64,000 bases of DNA, taken from NCBI GenBank assembly GCA_951406725.2, contig OX597818.1, positions 61,194,001 through 61,258,000 of the forward strand, read 5' to 3'. The DNA comes from Octopus vulgaris. Lineage: Eukaryota. This document shows positions 3,346 to 44,455 of the stretch, in pieces (within the stretch, counting starts at the first letter, position 1; each line of letters begins with the position of its first letter). The position numbers and the translations under genes were made by a program. A model generated the notes under the pieces. It searched no databases. It was not told where the DNA came from and saw only the letters and a list, made by a program, of their open reading frames with translations.

Positions 3346-3363
3346 ATAGTAAATAATGTATGA

Positions 3364-3506
3364 ACATTATTTACATTTGATGGATATTTGTCCTCATCTT
3401 GTTTGTTGTTAACACATTTCGGCTGATATACCCTCCAGCCTTCATCAGGTGTTTTGGGGAAATTTCGAACCTGGGTTCTCATTCCTAAGGTATTTTTTCG
3501 ATGTTG

Positions 3507-3551
<45 letters not shown>

Positions 3552-3853
3552 TCACTGCCTGGAATCAAACTCAGAATCTTGGGGTTAGTAGCCTGCGCTC
3601 TTAACCACCATGCCATAAGCCCACGGGCATATGGCATAGTGGTAAATAATAATAATAATAATAATAACAACAACAACAACATCGAAAAAATACCTTAGGA
3701 ATGAGAACCCAGGTTTGAAATTTCCCCAAGACACCTGATGAAGGCTGGAGGGTATATCAGCCGAAACGTGTTAACAACAAACAAGATGAGGACAAATATC
3801 TGTCAAATGTAAATAATGTAAATAATTCCTCATGTTTTAAATATAGAACTGTA
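3364..3853. mobile_element. Family D foldback copy (head-to-head palindrome, hammerhead motif in each arm)
   Basis: About 180-bp arms 3364-3546 and 3645-3820 are reverse complements; apex ccataagcccacgggcatatgg at about 3622; full tRNA-like head on the minus strand, deleted head on plus; about 33-nt unique 3' tail. Confidence 0.85.
3730..3772 (+). ncRNA. Minimal type I hammerhead ribozyme motif (Penelope-like); this copy lacks the cleavage triplet seen in sister copies
   Basis: GACAC-CTGATGA-A-GGCTG(gagggtatat)CAGCC-GAAAC-GTGTT: canonical core boxes, 5-bp stem II, stem I GACAC/GTGTT. Confidence 0.65.
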
Positions 3854-3984
3854 CCCTATGTATGACCCCCAAAACAGGTAAAGCAATGTCATTCTAGTGA
3901 GCTCCGAAAATTATGAATGGTTACTTTCAACTCATACTAATTTAGTTAAAACACAACTGATCAGTCATAGTTGGGAACAACTGG

Positions 3985-8009: not shown

Positions 8010-9653
8010 GGGGTTGACAGAAACGTTAGCACGCCGGGCGAAATGTGTAGCCGTATTTCGTCTGCCGTTAAGTGTTCTGAGTTCAAATTCCGCTGAGGTC
8101 GACTTTGCCTTTCATCCTTTCGGGGTCGATAAATTAAGTACCAGTTACGCACTGGGGTCGATGTGATCGATTTAATCCGTTTGTCTGTCCTTGTTTGTCC
8201 CCTCTATGTTTAGCCCCTTGTGGGTAGTAAAGAAATAGGTATTTCATCTGTCGTTACGTTCCAAGTTAAAATTCCACCGAGGTCGATAAATTAAGTACCA
8301 GTTACGCACTGGGGTCGATGTGATCGATTTAATCCGTTTGTCTGTCCTTGTTTGTCTCCTCTATGTTTAGCCCCTTGTGGGTAGTAAAGAAATAGGTATT
8401 TCGTCTGCCGTTATGTTCCAAGTTCAAATTCCACCGAGGTCGATAAATTAAGTACCAGTTACGCACTGGGGTCGATGTGATCGATTTAATCCGTTTGTCT
8501 GTCCTTGTTTGTCTCCTCTATGTTTAGCCCCTTGTGGGTAGTAAAGAAATAGGTATTTTGTCTGTCGTTACGTTCCAAGTTCAAATTCCACCGAGGTCGA
8601 TAAATTAAGTACCAGTTACGCACTGGGGTCGATGTGATCGATTTAATCCCTTTGTCTGTCCTTGTTTGTCTCCTCTATGTTTAGCCCCTTGTGGGTAGTA
8701 AAGAAATAGGTATTTCGTCTGCCGTTATGTTCCAAGTTCAAATTCCACCGAGGTCGATAAATTAAGTACCAGTTACGCACTGGGGTCGATGTGATCGATT
8801 TAATCCCTTTGTCTGTCCTTGTTTGTCTCCTCTATGTTTAGCCCCTTGTGGGTAGTAAAGAAATAGGTATTTCGTCTGCCGTTACGTTCCAAGTTAAAAT
8901 TCCACCGAGGTCGATAAATTAAGTACCAGTTACGCACTGGGGTCGATGTGATCGATTTAATCCGTTTGTCTGTCCTTGTTTGTCCCCTCTATGTTTAGCC
9001 CCTTGTGGGTAGTAAAGAAATAGGTATTTCGTCTGCCGTTACGTTCCAAGTTAAAATTCCACCGAGGTCGATAAATTAAGTACCAGTTACGCACTGGGGT
9101 CGATGTGATTGATTTAATCCCTTTGCCTGTCCTTGTTTGTCCCCTCTGTGTTTAGCCCCTTTGTGGGTAGTAAAGAAATAGGTATTTCGTCTGCCGTTAC
9201 GTTCCAAGTTCAAATTCCACCGAGGTCGATAAATTAAGTACCAGTTACGCACTGGGGTCGATGTGATCGATTTAATCCCTTTGTCTGCCCTTGTTTGTCC
9301 CTTCTGTGTTTAGCCCCTTTGTGGGTAGTAAAGAAATAGGTATTTCGTCTGTCGTTACGTTCCAAGTTCAAATTCCACCGAGGTCGATAAATTAAGTACC
9401 AGTTACGCACTGGGGTCGATGTGATCGATTTGATCCCTTTGTCTGTCCTTGTTTGTCCCCTCTGTGTTTAGCCCCTTTGTGGGTAGTAAAGAAATAGGTA
9501 TTTCGTCTGTCGTTACGTTCCAAGTTCAAATTCCACCGAGGTCGATAAATTAAGTACCAGTTACGCACTGGGGTCGATGTGATCGATTTAATCCCTTTGT
9601 CTGTCCTTGTTTGTCCCCTCTGTGTTTAGCCCCTTTGTGGGTAGTAAAGAAAT
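8010..9653 (+). repeat. Family B SINE expanded into a tandem array of 10 bodies (157-158 bp period)
   Basis: gaggtcgataaatt recurs at 8279, 8436, 8593, 8750, 8907, 9064, 9222, 9380, 9538 after one head and an intact first unit. Confidence 0.95.
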
Positions 9654-9969
9654 ATATATAATTACTCACTTCAATTCGTATATTTTTAAAACCTAAACAT
9701 GTAAGTGGTGCTACTTAGAACCTCAACATACCAGACTTCTTGGGTCATAAACAGAGAATGCACAGTTTCATAGCCTTTTCTCAAATAAGTTTATTGCACA
9801 ATGAACTCCCACTGTTTGTAATATACCTCCACTTGCTAGATCAACCAGCTACTGACCTTAACTCACCCAACTTTCCATCATCACTTTGTAGCCAATCCCA
9901 GGGCCTCAACTTCTCAACCATAGCTTTGACATCTTTTCTTATTGTCTGCATTTGTGACAAGCCTTAGTC

Positions 9970-15308: not shown

Positions 15309-15727
15309 AAGGCGGTGAGCTGGCAGAATCGTTAGCACGCTAGGTGAAATGCTTTGCGGTATCTCATCAGCTGTTATGTTCTGAGTTCAAATTCCGCCAA
15401 GGTCGACTTTGCCTTTCATTCTTTCGGGGTCGATTAAATGAGTACCAGTTACCCACTGGGGTCGATATAATCGACTGAATCCATTTGCCTGTCCTTGTTT
15501 GTCCCCTCTATGTTTAGCCCCTTGTGGGTAGTAAAGAAATAGGTATTTCGTCTGCCTTTACGTTCTGAGTTTAAATTCCACCAAGGTTGACTTTGCCTAT
15601 CATCCTTTCGGGGTCGATTAAATAAGTACCAGTTACACACTGGGGTCAATATAATCGACTTAATCCGTTTGTCTGTCCTTGTTTGTCCCCTCTGTGTTTA
15701 GCCCCTTGTGGGTAGTAAAGAAATAGG
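15309..15727 (+). mobile_element. Family B SINE, dimeric body
   Basis: One head, two bodies joined by gaaataggtatttc; flanking direct repeat tattcattttttcc (15291-15304 / 15728-15741). Confidence 0.9.
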
Positions 15728-28654: not shown

Positions 28655-29072
28655 TAATCATCATTGTTCAACCGTGGTCAAGACAATGGAATTTCACGGT
28701 CCATCATAGCATTACGGAGGCCCTGTTGCTGGATGCCTGTATCCCTGGAGATTACATCAGGGTAGTAGAGTGTGCACCCTCTGGTATCGCGAGCAGATGG
28801 CTTCCAGAGGAGAAGAGTAGAAATTACCTCGTTTTCAGCTCTACAACAATGTCCAGCAAACTGGACTCTTCTACCTTTCACAAGAGATGATACAGGTGGT
28901 AATTTTCCATATATTTGTACTTTGGTTGGATGATACTTCCACGAGAGGTTTTGAGCTCTCATAAGGAGGCGAGTGTAAGTTCCATTCAACCGCCTCTCAA
29001 GCTTCTTTGATAACGTCCAGGTTTCTGAGCCATATAGTAGAATTGGTTCGACTGTGGCTTTGAAGATTGTGG
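28655..29072 (-). mobile_element. 5'-truncated RTE-clade LINE (C-terminal ORF and short-repeat tail)
   Basis: IFKATVEPILLYGSETWTLSKKLERRL...RRVQFAGHC...MMDRE is the typical RTE post-RT region; atgatgattatta tail. Confidence 0.88.
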
Positions 29073-29779
29073 CACTAAGACGCAAGGAGTAAAATGTGTT
29101 GCCTTGAAACACAAAAATTACCAAACACATATTTATGTTCAAGAAACAAATGGAAACTAGTCCTAATACTACACACACACACATCCATTTCTGCCTCATT
29201 TCTGCATTTCTAGTATGATTACTTCAAAATACCAAATCCTGTGAACTAAATTCATAATAATAAAATATGCAGAAATTTTATATACAAATCACTTTTTATG
29301 TTAAAAATTATTCAGTTGGATGCTATTGTTTCTTGCTTATAAAGATGCAACAAAAATAAAGTTTTAAAATATTTTATTTCTTCAAAGTAATAACCTATGT
29401 TGAAGACAGTAAATTTGAAAATACAATAAAATGCAAAGAACAAGAGTTTTATCTTTACTACTTTGTATTGTCCTCAAATAAATATTTCACATTTATTTTG
29501 AATAATTAAATTTGTTATCACCTAACATTCTAATGTGGAATATAGGAAAAAAAAAAAGAGAAATATTGACGATAATGATGATCATTTATATTTTCCAATA
29601 GACAATTATAAGAATGGCATTTATGAGGGGTAAGAAGATGGCAAGAGCATTACAAGAATATACTTCAATACTTCTCCAAGAAATGCTGACATTCTAATGA
29701 CCAAAGAGCATTGAAGTATGAGAATGTTGCTTATAAATTCATAAAGTACAAAAATATTTCTCTCAGTACATATACAACT

Positions 29780-32525: not shown

Positions 32526-33092
32526 TATTATTCATTCACATTTAACAAAGAAAGCTTGGTATTTCATAACACCTAGTGCATTTAAAATTATTAATGTCCA
32601 TAACTAAATAGTTCTGTCCATGATTTTTTTTTTATCATTTCCTTTGACGTTTACCTAATAAAATAAAAAGTTCCAAACTTGTGTTTTGGTTTTTATTTAT
32701 TTTTTTAACTTTACAACTGCTTATTTCCAAAACTTCAAAGTAATGTAATTCCTTGTAGTTTATAGTAAAAAAAAAATAAAATAAAATCCTGTTCCAAATA
32801 TTTTTATCACAAGCACATGAATATTATCTATTATCTAATACTAGACAGAAATGTGATGTAAATAATTCAGAATATAACAATATACTATTTTATACTATAT
32901 ATATAAACCAAGGTTGTGTGATTAAGATAATCACTTCACAAACATACATAGTCATTCATAGACTCACTCAACTCTGTTGAGCACTTCTGAGAAGTGATGT
33001 CTGCAACAACTTTGGATTGACCAATGCCTTACGAGTGAAATTTGAGAAATGGAAACTGTGCGAAAACACATGGATACTATATTGTATTTAAG

Positions 33093-33460
33093 GTTATTTA
33101 CATTATTTACATTTGACAGATATTTGGCCTGAACTTGTTTGTTGTTAAACACAACATTTTGGCTGATATACCCTCCAGCCTTCATCAGGTGAGGGTATAT
33201 TCAAACCTGGGTTTTTTTTTTCCTAAGGTATTTTTTCAATGTAATATTTGTTATTATTATTATTCAGGTCACTGCCTGAAAATCGAACTCGGAATCTTGG
33301 AGTTAGTAGCCCACGCTCTTAACCACTATGCCATATACCTGTGGGCTGGAGAGTTTATCAACCAAAACGTTGAGTTAACAACAAACAAGATGATGAGGAC
33401 AAATATCTGTCAAATGTAAATAATGTGCCTTATTCCTCATCTCTTAAGTATAGAACTGTA
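33093..33460. mobile_element. Family D foldback copy (diverged, right arm internally deleted)
   Basis: Left arm on minus carries the head plus CACCTGATGAAGGCTG...CAGCCAAAATGTTGTGTT; apex gccatatacctgtgggc; right arm ends tatagaactgta; tgtatttaag at 33083-33092 and 33457-33466. Confidence 0.8.
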
Positions 33461-33847
33461 TTTAAGTTGAGTCATCTGACAAACAAAAATCAACAAAATC
33501 AGTAGGAGATCAAGTATGGGGGTACTAATAAACTAAAACCACGAAATTAGTGTCCTAGCAGAGTACGAACCAATGAGTAAAACTAATAAAAGATTTTACA
33601 TAGAAGTATGTCACCACAATGGATTTTTATTACTTTAAATATGTATTATTATTATCAATGGCAGAAGCAGCCACCTGGAGGGAGAATAGGTGCCTCTTGC
33701 AAGTGCACTAAACTTTTATTAGACCAGGAAAGTCTCTTCATTTCTGACACTACAGTGCTCTTCCATGACCTTTTCACAGTACCACAGAGCTAATTCTGAG
33801 GAAAGACATTGAAAGAATTGATCCTGGTATTTTACTGATATCATATC

Positions 33848-34260: not shown

Positions 34261-36019
34261 TTTACTGATATCATATCAAATCCAAAAGTGTGAAAGGCGA
34301 TGTTAGCTATAGCAGAATTTGAACTCAGAAAACCTAGACAGAAACAAAACTGCAAAGCATTTTGTCCAATACTTTCACCACTCTTCCAATTCACTGCCCT
34401 GCTTTTTGCATGTGAGAGAGACAGACATTATATATATATATATTCGCAAAACATTTACAGACGGATAATGGAGAAACTAGCAGTGTATAACTGCACTGAA
34501 GGTAAAGCATAATGACATTGGACATAGATAATATCTTGTAAATTTAAGCCGCACACATATGAGAGATACTGACGAGATATGGAGACATTCATGAACTATT
34601 CATGAATCTATTAGCAGAGAGAACAGAACTGATGATACTAATGTTTGTGGCATAACTGTATAAAAAAAAAAAATCTAAGGAAAAAGAAATCTATGAATAT
34701 ACAAAGTAGAATGTAATACAAATTTGGTAGAGGTGTGTGAATGAAAGTGCTGGTTGGAAAATAAGCGTAAGCTCTTTATTTTATACACATACTGAATACA
34801 AACACTGACCACCTGTAATTTCTACAAGGCAACATTCAAACCGAGCATTAATTAAGAAAACAGCAAGCAAATCTGAATCTTATAATTATTTTTATGTGTG
34901 GTTCAATAACACTTCTTGCAATGTCTAAATGAACATTATAGGAAGCATCGATGAAGAAAAAAATGCTAAGACAATGTAATGCTATTAATCACACACAACG
35001 TATATATAGCTATGTGTGCGTAAATGTGTTAGCAAGCAAAACAAACATATATTATTAAATGTATGTAACAAATATTTAGGTTGCTGAAATAAGTCTAAGT
35101 GCTGCTTATCTTTTTAAGAAACTGATTCTCTATATGATTATGATGTGCTAGGATATAAATTTGTGTCAGTTGAAGGCACTAAACAAATTTTAAAATTAAT
35201 TCAATTGATAGTGTATAATCACAGGGAATGGAAAACTAATCGAATAGAAGACAAGGAAAAGTAGCAATGCAGAAGCATCTTTAGTTACAAACAGCAGAAT
35301 GGTTTGTAAAGAAATACACTTCTTAGCAACAGCAGACAGAGTCTCTCTCTCTCTCCGTATATATAAAAAGAATGATATACGATAGATAAATATGTGCAAC
35401 ACCATGTTTTGTTGTTGGAAAGGAAGGAACTAAATAACCAACGTGAACTTAATGTGACTGGATATTAGGGTTAGGGTTAGGAGAGAGGAAATGAAAAAAA
35501 TATCAGAATCTGCTACGATATAGGATAAGAATGAATGCAGCATAAAGGATAAAATTAATGATGTTGGAGCGGTTACTTGACACGAGCTGAGGAAGAAATA
35601 TACTGAGGAAGTGCCAGAACAAAGTAATTTAAACAGAACTAATACAGTTGAAGCTAGTGATAAATGATAATAGCAGAGAGAAAGAATAAGTTTATATAGC
35701 AGTGGCAGATTGACAGTGTGGAAAAGATTTCAAAATTGATGATTATAATATATCTAAATAGGATTTTATGCATCAAGATGGAGAAAAAAAGAGATGAAAC
35801 TTATGATACCTGTGGGCTTTTTCCAGGCTAGTGAGATCAGTGTGGTTGATGTTCAGTTGAAACTTCTGTGACTTGTGTAGGATTGTGGAAGTCAGGTGGG
35901 GATTCCAGAATGTTTTGTGTAGACCTGATAGGATGAACTACACTAGTGGTGCATTAGATAAACTAGTAGATACAGTACAGTAAGAACCAAGGAGAGAAGT
36001 AGCATGAGTAAGCCATGAA

Positions 36020-43677: not shown

Positions 43678-44027
43678 AGTGGCTGTGTGGTAAGTAGCTT
43701 GTTTACCAACCACATGGTTCCAGGTTCAGTCCCACTGCATGGCACCTTGAACAAGTGTCTTCTACTATAGCCTTGGGCTGACTAAAGCCTTGTGAGTGGA
43801 TTTGGTAGACGGAAACTGAAAGAAGCCCGTTGTATATATGTATGTGTGTGTATATGTTTGTGTGGCTGTGTTTGTTCTCCCAACATCGCTTGACAACTGA
43901 TACTGTAACTTAGTGACTGATATAATAAGTACTAGGCTTACAAAGAATAAATTCTAGGGTCAATTTGTTTGACTAATGGCGGTGCTCCAGCATGGCCACA
44001 GTCACATGACTGAAACAAGTAAAAGAG
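43678..44027 (+). mobile_element. Family A SINE
   Basis: Consensus match with internal deletion. Confidence 0.85.
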
Positions 44028-44089
44028 ATATATAAAGAACGAAGAAGAAAATCCCAAGTTCATTTTGTCTGACACTGTGATAATAATAA

Positions 44090-44455
44090 CCGTACCGGCA
44101 GATGACAACGTGTCTCTAAAAGAAATGGAGAAACTCTCAAAATACAAAGACCTGGAAATAGAGGTAACTAGAATGTGGAATCTGAAAACAGAAACAATTC
44201 CTATCATAGTAGGTGCATTAGGCATGATAAAAAAATATTCAGACAAATACATAACAAAAACACCAGGACTTACAAACACATATAACATACAGAAAATTGA
44301 ACTACTGGGCAGTGCACACATCCTACGCAGAACTCTTTCCATACAATAACCATCAGAGCATCACAACAAATCACAGCACATACCCAAGGCACACAGAGCT
44401 GCGCTCGGTAGTGAAGTGAAAGCACGCTATAAAAATAAAAATAAAACTACTGAAT
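44090..44455 (+). mobile_element. 5'-truncated R4/Dong-like non-LTR retrotransposon inserted in (TAA)n
   Basis: VPADDNVSLKEMEKLSKYKDLEIEVTRMW...IPIIVGALG...IQKIELLGSAHILRRTL is a restriction-like endonuclease C-terminus; TAA repeats on both sides. Confidence 0.85.

Follow-up and report, generated by a model that had tools for sequence, protein, structure and literature searches.

Two head-to-head foldbacks in a 64,000-nucleotide stretch of Octopus vulgaris DNA (contig OX597818.1, hereafter the window) are each likely one insertion of a short repetitive element with a tRNA-like head and a Penelope-type 3′ end. The explanation that we favor, and hold to be somewhat better than even, is that a Penelope-type enzyme primed DNA synthesis from both strands of a staggered target cut and that the two resulting cDNAs were joined. 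Its basis is a single 8-10-nt target-site duplication per pair, together with the outer ends of the arms, one of which lies at a 34-nt tail and the other at a tail-less site. The earlier note on this DNA did not report the duplications. Because one duplication encloses each whole pair, each pair is most simply one insertion.

The element, Family D, is dispersed, short, and present in high copy number. Its unit is approximately 270-340 nt long, lacks a long open reading frame, and reads in its own direction as a 6-nt leader (GCCCAC), a tRNA-like head that starts with GGGC, an (AAT)n tract, a body that carries a minimal hammerhead layout, the sequence AAATAATGT, and a 34-nt tail that ends in TATAGAACTGTA. 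Self-BLAST finds three copies in the AT-rich and microsatellite-rich window: A (3364-3853), B (33094-33460), and C (1276-1612). A target duplication of approximately 8-10 nt is present at all three, and none of them is arranged in tandem.

Two contig sets (X1 and X3) contributed 14,613 and 17,754 contig pieces that aligned on B. In X1, depth reaches 565,000 over the head (33300-33314) versus 14-18 at B’s flanks; depth is not a copy count, and it suggests a copy number on the order of ten thousand. The raw-read runs X22 and X23 are far sparser, with 14 and 76 aligned reads from 12.9 million each, which is too few for a family this abundant; these reads may come from other species or may have been filtered. 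None of the 14 and 76 aligned reads crosses the junction of B.

Several other features of the window were recorded. A 12-nt match to the leader of B occurs at 35806 with no element surrounding it. A young tandem array at 8121-9679 has a 157-nt unit in copies that are 97-98% alike, and another dispersed repeat, present at 15425, 33843, and 55958, is related to this unit. Two frames, at 28678-29223 (- strand) and 44023-44349 (+ strand), resemble, by eye, pieces of the C-terminal part of LINE proteins; Pfam matches none at E 0.1.

Locus A is a foldback with a self-BLAST E value of 2e-137. It lies between exact copies of the 8-nt target-site duplication ATGTATGA at 3356-3363 and 3858-3865 (both + strand), the second of which begins 4 nt past the tail end; a duplication of this quality is equalled in 0.5% of 20,000 random 16-mers. 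The left arm (3364-3622, - strand) contains the full tRNA-like head (3549-3622, -) with box A TGGCATGGTGG and the box B-like motif GAGTTTGATTCC, an (AAT)n/(AAC)n tract between head and body (3504-3548, -), the body, and a remnant of a minimal type I hammerhead (3411-3453, -) whose cleavage site is short by 3 nt. It has no tail and stops at AAATAATGT. The right arm (3619-3853, + strand) contains the leader, box A, the (AAT)n tract, the body, a hammerhead remnant (3730-3772, +) with the same 3-nt deletion, and the Penelope-type tail (3820-3853, +), which is found on this arm only. Approximately 55 nt of its head are deleted after 3643, and box B is gone.

The two arms of A differ from each other at 5 of 138 nt (96% alike), compared with 12-15 of 134-137 nt to arms at other loci. 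The 3-nt hammerhead deletion that they have in common occurs in none of the other three arms, and 13 of the 15 database peptides that were aligned lack it too. Just outside the left arm, at 3349-3359, the target reads GTAAATAATGT, which mirrors the arm’s own end and overlaps the duplication; this mirroring may reflect chance or a target preference.

Locus B is a weaker foldback by self-BLAST (E 2e-21) with a longer duplication. Exact copies of the 10-nt sequence TGTATTTAAG lie at 33083-33092 and 33457-33466 (both + strand), the right copy overlapping the last 4 nt of the tail, and 20,000 random sequences put the chance of such a duplication at 0.035%. The left flank was also considered as a decayed tail and ruled out, its sequence being the target duplication. 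The left arm (33094-33346, - strand) is full length and tail-less, with the leader GCCCAC at 33346-33341 and the head at 33340-33266. It ends 6-7 nt beyond the AAATAATGT stop used at A, and its hammerhead has core G12 changed to A. The right arm (33344-33460, + strand) is only 117 nt long, begins at the GGC of hammerhead stem II, and has neither a head nor CUGAUGA; it alone carries the 34-nt tail (33427-33460, +). The arms meet via a 3-nt microhomology (GGC) and differ at 9 of 80 nt, which makes them no closer than arms from different loci.

Copy C (1276-1612, + strand) is a single arm with head and tail and with a broken hammerhead stem II. The leader and the first bases of its head are absent, and it has no apex. 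Its target-site duplication (1266-1275 and 1613-1622) agrees at 9 of 10 nt, 7 of them exact, and is equalled by 0.4% of random sequences. The two-armed structure is not fixed across the family: C is single-armed, and the joints of other copies are variable.

The earlier note described head-to-head pairs with one and the same palindromic apex, a truncated left arm, and a right arm that has an internal deletion and alone keeps an end of approximately 33 nt. The inverted pairs exist at both loci, as do both quoted apex strings, GCCC-AC-GGGC at 3619-3628 (+ strand) and ACCT-GT-GGGC at 33337-33346, and the one-sided end measures 34 nt at each. The identity of the apices does not hold up: the two lie on opposite strands and agree (26 of 29 nt) only after one is reverse-complemented, and when the tail-bearing arm is oriented to the right, the loop is AC at A (3623) and GT at B (33341). 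At A, the 10-mer consists of the 6-nt leader and the first 4 nt of the tRNA-like head, and it is self-complementary apart from the 2-nt loop. The apex of B is not palindromic in extent, since nothing mirrors the left arm beyond the 10-mer; past GGGC, the sequence jumps to TGGAG in the middle of hammerhead stem II, where an intact element reads AAGGCTGGAG. As for truncation, the left arms lack the tail at both loci but nothing else, and of the two arms of B it is the left that is full length and the right that is short. An internal deletion describes the right arm of A, with its loss in the head, whereas at B it is one reading and a 5′ truncation fits equally.

Position 8 of the Rfam tRNA model falls at 33333 in B, which places the tRNA start at 33340 and thus makes GCCCAC a leader. 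Read from the arms’ sequences, the shared apex appears to be the ordinary fixed 5′ end of whichever arm is full length. The Penelope link drawn in the earlier note agrees with the minimal type I hammerhead layout, the one-sided 34-nt tail, the inverted copy, and the 8-10-nt target duplications, and the 3′ end of the family is Penelope-type by structure.

A biochemical precedent exists for the two-ended scheme. According to the available passages of PMC11167929, both target strands are cleaved and extended by the anole Penelope-like protein PAc, a predicted dimer. It initiates at two neighboring sites inside the RNA, and the tail is defined by these two sites. In the favored explanation for the octopus foldbacks, one cut end would prime at the tail site and give rise to the right arm, while the other would prime at the tail-less site and give rise to the left arm. 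Each cDNA would run toward the RNA 5′ end and may stop anywhere, and the two 3′ ends would be joined by short pairing. A full-length cDNA would end in the complement of GCCCACGGGC and could pair with another full-length end at 8 of 10 bases, with the self-complementary leader acting as a sticky end. The DNA apex is predicted to form an end-to-end self-duplex of -10.4 to -11.8 kcal/mol and a hairpin of -0.6 to -1.3 kcal/mol, values that describe an intermolecular and an intramolecular step, respectively, and give no rates.

Two full-length cDNAs would produce the mirror apex of A, with either loop polarity after repair, and a full-length cDNA joined to a truncated one would produce B through GGC, necessarily with GT. 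The tail-bearing arm of B is the short one and therefore needs its own RNA-primed start. At A, the likeness of the arms and their private 3-nt deletion point to one template, and both arms would come from one template RNA or one source gene; the loss of approximately 55 nt from the right arm would be a polymerase skip or a later deletion. Penelope enzymes are not known to have RNase H and could thus copy one template twice. The close likeness of the arms of A fits foldback or gene conversion equally well, and every asymmetric joint, including that of B, could be a later deletion from a full palindrome.

Joints in other copies were obtained from the contig alignment on B, with 15 of 100 joints and 12 of 94 junction fillers listed. 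Among the joints listed, at least nine distinct ones leave the 5′ end of the left arm (33333-33346). Seven of these nine listed joints re-enter the right arm at truncated points without mirror sequence, one continues for five mirror bases past a GT apex, and another, at a depth of 325 in X1, leads via an AC apex to a mirrored head. Two of the joints listed re-enter inside the tail (33432 and 33441), where the arms have no common sequence. The shorter sides of the joints measure only 22-35 nt, and the re-entry points at 33392-33399, which adjoin a 3-nt insertion in B itself, are imprecise. Twelve reads of run X23 show the opposite arrangement, in which the inverted arm is truncated and meets an arm that starts GCCCATGGG.

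The 3′ ends of other copies were also read from peptides. Of 24 peptide matches, 14 were aligned, leaving out eight of a related tandem family and two that are unrelated. Seven of the 14 cross the tail and then diverge, six stop at the tail-less site, and one is ambiguous.

Some breakpoints stand apart from this set. The joint from 33336 to 33408 has depths of 416 (X1) and 612 (X3), at least ten times the flank depth, and may be a recurrent join or an amplified locus. An additional 9-nt AAATAATGT unit appears to be present at the tail-less end in 230-280 contigs per run, which have loose ends at 33094 and 33426 and continue into unrelated flanks; slippage at the start site is possible. In run X23, 8-12 reads at the loose ends 33169 and 33213 pass from antisense body to sense head to antisense hammerhead and are perhaps a rearranged tandem unit of the family. 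The apparent opposite-strand joints at 33148 and 33157 likely arise from indels of B itself and were disregarded.

Snap-back priming is a distinctly less probable account of the foldbacks. According to this account, the GCCC/GGGC end of a cDNA that has reached the RNA 5′ end folds over and primes copying of that cDNA, and asymmetric copies are later deletions. The high similarity of the arms of A and the deletion that they have in common are in its favor, as are the AC polarity of A, which is expected if the tail-bearing arm came first, the one listed joint with mirror bases after a GT apex, and the self-priming that the passages available from PMC3846280 propose for rotifer Penelope junction palindromes. 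However, B combines GT polarity with a short tail-bearing arm, and its tail is not copyable from a tail-less arm; pure foldback therefore fails at B unless later deletions intervened. In two listed joints, the partner of a full left arm consists of nothing but tail sequence, the predicted apex hairpin has just 3 bp and is weak, and the account gives no reason for the copied arm to end at the second of the known start sites. The hairpin-primed step proposed in the earlier note thus survives as a possibility for A, or as a brief helper step, but cannot alone yield B. A hybrid in which a short snap-back is followed by joining to a second cDNA is possible.

The same note had also proposed a palindromic master, a head-to-head source that is transcribed through the apex and moves as a unit, with decay of the arms later; we consider this improbable. 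An identical 10-mer stands at both junctions, and the listed mirror-apex joint is far deeper in X1 than the flanks of B (325 versus 14-18), so several copies share it. The leader precedes the start of the tRNA model and may be derived from an ancient inverted junction. Set against these points are the opposite loop polarity at A and B, the single-armed copy C, and the joining of one 5′ end to many partner points, with seven of the nine listed 5′-end joints lacking mirror sequence. Depth in X1 also falls from 565,000 (33300-33314) to 150,000 (33330-33344); depth is no copy count, but the drop suggests that many copies end before reaching the apex.

Slightly less probable still are two independent insertions side by side, or an inverted duplication made by repair after insertion. 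The arms of B, which are no closer to each other than arms across loci (9 of 80 nt), and the abundance of the family speak for these accounts, but a single duplication encloses each whole pair and the same tail asymmetry recurs at A and B. A repair duplication cannot supply a head to the left arm of B or a tail to its right arm. An assembly artefact from read-foldback chimeras is very improbable: although no long read or contig in the aligned runs and contig sets spans either locus, and passages of PMC8557442 note that inverted Penelope structures trouble assemblers, the arms differ by substitutions and long gaps, both pairs have target duplications, both flanks of B are at single-copy depth in X1 and X3 (two studies), and runs of four studies, one of which may be the source sample, contain 0.74-0.81 of the sampled words around A.

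The earlier note’s picture of two divergent Pol III promoters, each running into a hammerhead, finds no counterpart at either foldback. Box A and the box B-like motif occur together in the left arms of A and B and in C; the right arm of A has box A alone, and that of B, which lacks the whole head, has neither. Judged by these motifs, no locus appears to have two promoters. Positions 8-63 of the Rfam tRNA model align with the head of B at 33333-33276 with 13 bits and E 2.4, under the cut-off of 29, and the same model has no match at copy C; ARAGORN reports no tRNA genes.

The hammerhead layout can be traced in four of the five arms, each damaged, and none of the five is intact. Both arms of A are 3 nt short at the cleavage site, the left arm of B has the G-to-A change, CUGAUGA is missing from its right arm, and stem II is broken in C. 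The motif is assigned by the layout given in the available part of PMC4209133, because Rfam reports no hammerhead or tRNA at the gathering score and only low-complexity matches up to E 5. The hammerhead and the head, each taken in isolation, fold no better than shuffles (z -0.02, 0.01, and 0.77), and folding energy thus gives no support. Scans of metagenome, viral, and prokaryote collections for the hammerhead motif gave no match, an outcome in keeping with a repeat of animal origin. The copies are probably inert now.

The long dsRNA hairpin that the earlier note expected from read-through is predicted for A, where the modeled RNA folds at -323 kcal/mol with 211 pairs and a 95-bp helix including G-U pairs, but its transcription would need an outside promoter. 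Divergent transcripts of the two arms of A would both be sense and would not pair.

The short copies may not constitute a separate SINE. They could be terminal-repeat stubs of a protein-coding Penelope element with a tRNA-type promoter, a reading that we put a little short of even and that is compatible with the two-ended joining mechanism. From an ATG that precedes the hammerhead, a frame of 51 codons, MRTQV...KYRTV, extends as far as the end of the tail (3701-3853, + strand; 3364-3482, - strand); it is open in the left arm of A and has one CpG-type stop in the right arm. Published Penelope repeats include the start of the ORF, according to passages of PMC11167929 and PMC3846280, and by comparison with these the frame may be the start of a parent Penelope ORF. 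Conversely, none of 26 peptide matches (24 and 2) has a reverse transcriptase or GIY-YIG domain, and the six that reach KYRT or NYRT have nothing in common beyond it. Copies A, B, and C contain no reverse transcriptase or GIY-YIG ORF, and the search for a partner by protein and peptide matches gave only host genes with an absorbed copy or short spurious frames, and no partner enzyme.

Two database proteins with the absorbed repeat are from Octopus sinensis and O. bimaculoides. In two octopus genes, encoding a cysteine-rich membrane protein and dystrobrevin beta (P0002 and P0003), predicted isoforms have the element frame as their N-terminus, which reflects either exonization or a gene-model error. 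Eight further matches (P0005, P0006, P0008, P0013, P0018, P0019, P0023, and P0026) represent a related and mostly tandem family with a unit of approximately 37 residues (approximately 111 nt), possibly a retrozyme-like relative. A 15-nt Family D motif is absent from the supplements of PMC8557442, in which line breaks could hide a match, and from that of PMC13282606, which contains no sequences, and the family may already be listed in an O. vulgaris repeat library or in bioRxiv supplements.

A more ambitious reading that joins these elements together is offered tentatively. A tRNA-promoter element with tens of thousands of copies would ride on a Penelope enzyme, and its 10-nt self-complementary leader would be a working sticky end that pairs two cDNAs. 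The leader would have been captured from an old inverted junction and kept for completing insertion, and the AC or GT loop would record which strand gave rise to each arm. If this is true, a single genome contains an extensive natural experiment on how Penelope inverted repeats arise.

Head-to-head Penelope copies with junction palindromes are already known from the rotifer Adineta, and A and B are a variant of such a footprint. In the passages available from PMC3846280, Pen2a, Pen2, and Pen3a have an inverted pLTR and a tail, with junction palindromes of 18 and 38 bp, for which self-priming on an antisense template is proposed. The Adineta elements resemble A and B in the head-to-head copy, the tail (31-40 nt in print) at one end, the 8-10-nt duplication, the junction palindromes, and the microhomology joins. 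Family D differs from them in being short, in lacking a long ORF, and in having a tRNA-like head and an apparently fixed 5′ end, and its data favor two primed ends over self-priming. The scheme of an inverted copy with a one-sided tail is generalized to Penelope-like elements in the available part of PMC8557442, which describes the formation of the inverted copies as unresolved. Tails in print measure 30-40 nt (passages of PMC11167929 and PMC8557442), and Penelope-like elements constitute 6.83% of the O. vulgaris genome according to the available part of PMC13282606. A target duplication is optional in such elements. A 34-bp repeat is described in Drosophila Penelope among the passages of PMC2377424, PMC4758252, PMC6962438, and PMC10886601, and the same passages contain no tRNA-headed case.

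Anole PAc (Poseidon, Anolis carolinensis) is similar in its repeat hammerhead, its two adjacent start sites, the extension of both strands, and its AT-rich targets, but it is protein-coding, and the available passages of PMC11167929 leave inverted pairs and cDNA joining unexplained. The minimal type I hammerheads of Penelope elements, as described in passages of PMC4209133, agree with Family D in the CUGAUGA core, the extra base before stem II, the long stem II, the 5-bp stem I, and the palindromic CG that replaces stem III; by contrast, all five Family D copies of the motif are damaged. As monomers, the minimal motifs do not cleave, according to the same passages. Animal non-LTR retrozymes are likewise short and non-coding, with a type I hammerhead, and are argued to be Penelope-dependent in the available parts of PMC7229834 and bioRxiv 10.64898/2026.07.22.740005. 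Retrozymes are arranged head-to-tail in tandem and form circular RNA, whereas Family D occurs as single copies or head-to-head pairs and carries a tRNA-like head.

Family D resembles tRNA-derived SINEs in its tRNA-like head with box A and a box B-like motif, in its high copy number, and in a 3′ end that would be borrowed from a mobilizing element. Classical SINEs have LINE tails and A-rich or simple-repeat ends, whereas Family D has a Penelope-type tail. Ohshima and Okada reportedly described the octopus tRNA-derived SINEs OK, OR1, and OR2 in 1994. Schistosome SM-alpha is another tRNA-derived SINE. Family D may be identical with OK or OR1. OR2 is a CORE SINE in the passage available from PMC4758252. 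The titles and abstracts searched, a scope that excludes subscription papers and Repbase, contain no description of a tRNA-headed Penelope-dependent element, and those searched for twin priming in Penelope contain none either.

In L1 twin priming, both target strands prime, and the product is head-to-head with a microhomology join and one target duplication. Its segments do not overlap and its second site is variable, whereas the arms of Family D can overlap fully and their second site is fixed. What remains of particular interest is a tRNA-like head on a Penelope-type end, together with a self-complementary leader whose loop polarity can be counted. In a family whose 5′ end is fixed and whose 2-nt loop is asymmetric, counts of junction classes could separate the two-ended, foldback, and palindromic-master models. 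If a tRNA-headed element is moved by a Penelope enzyme, the known range of SINE-partner pairs would be widened.
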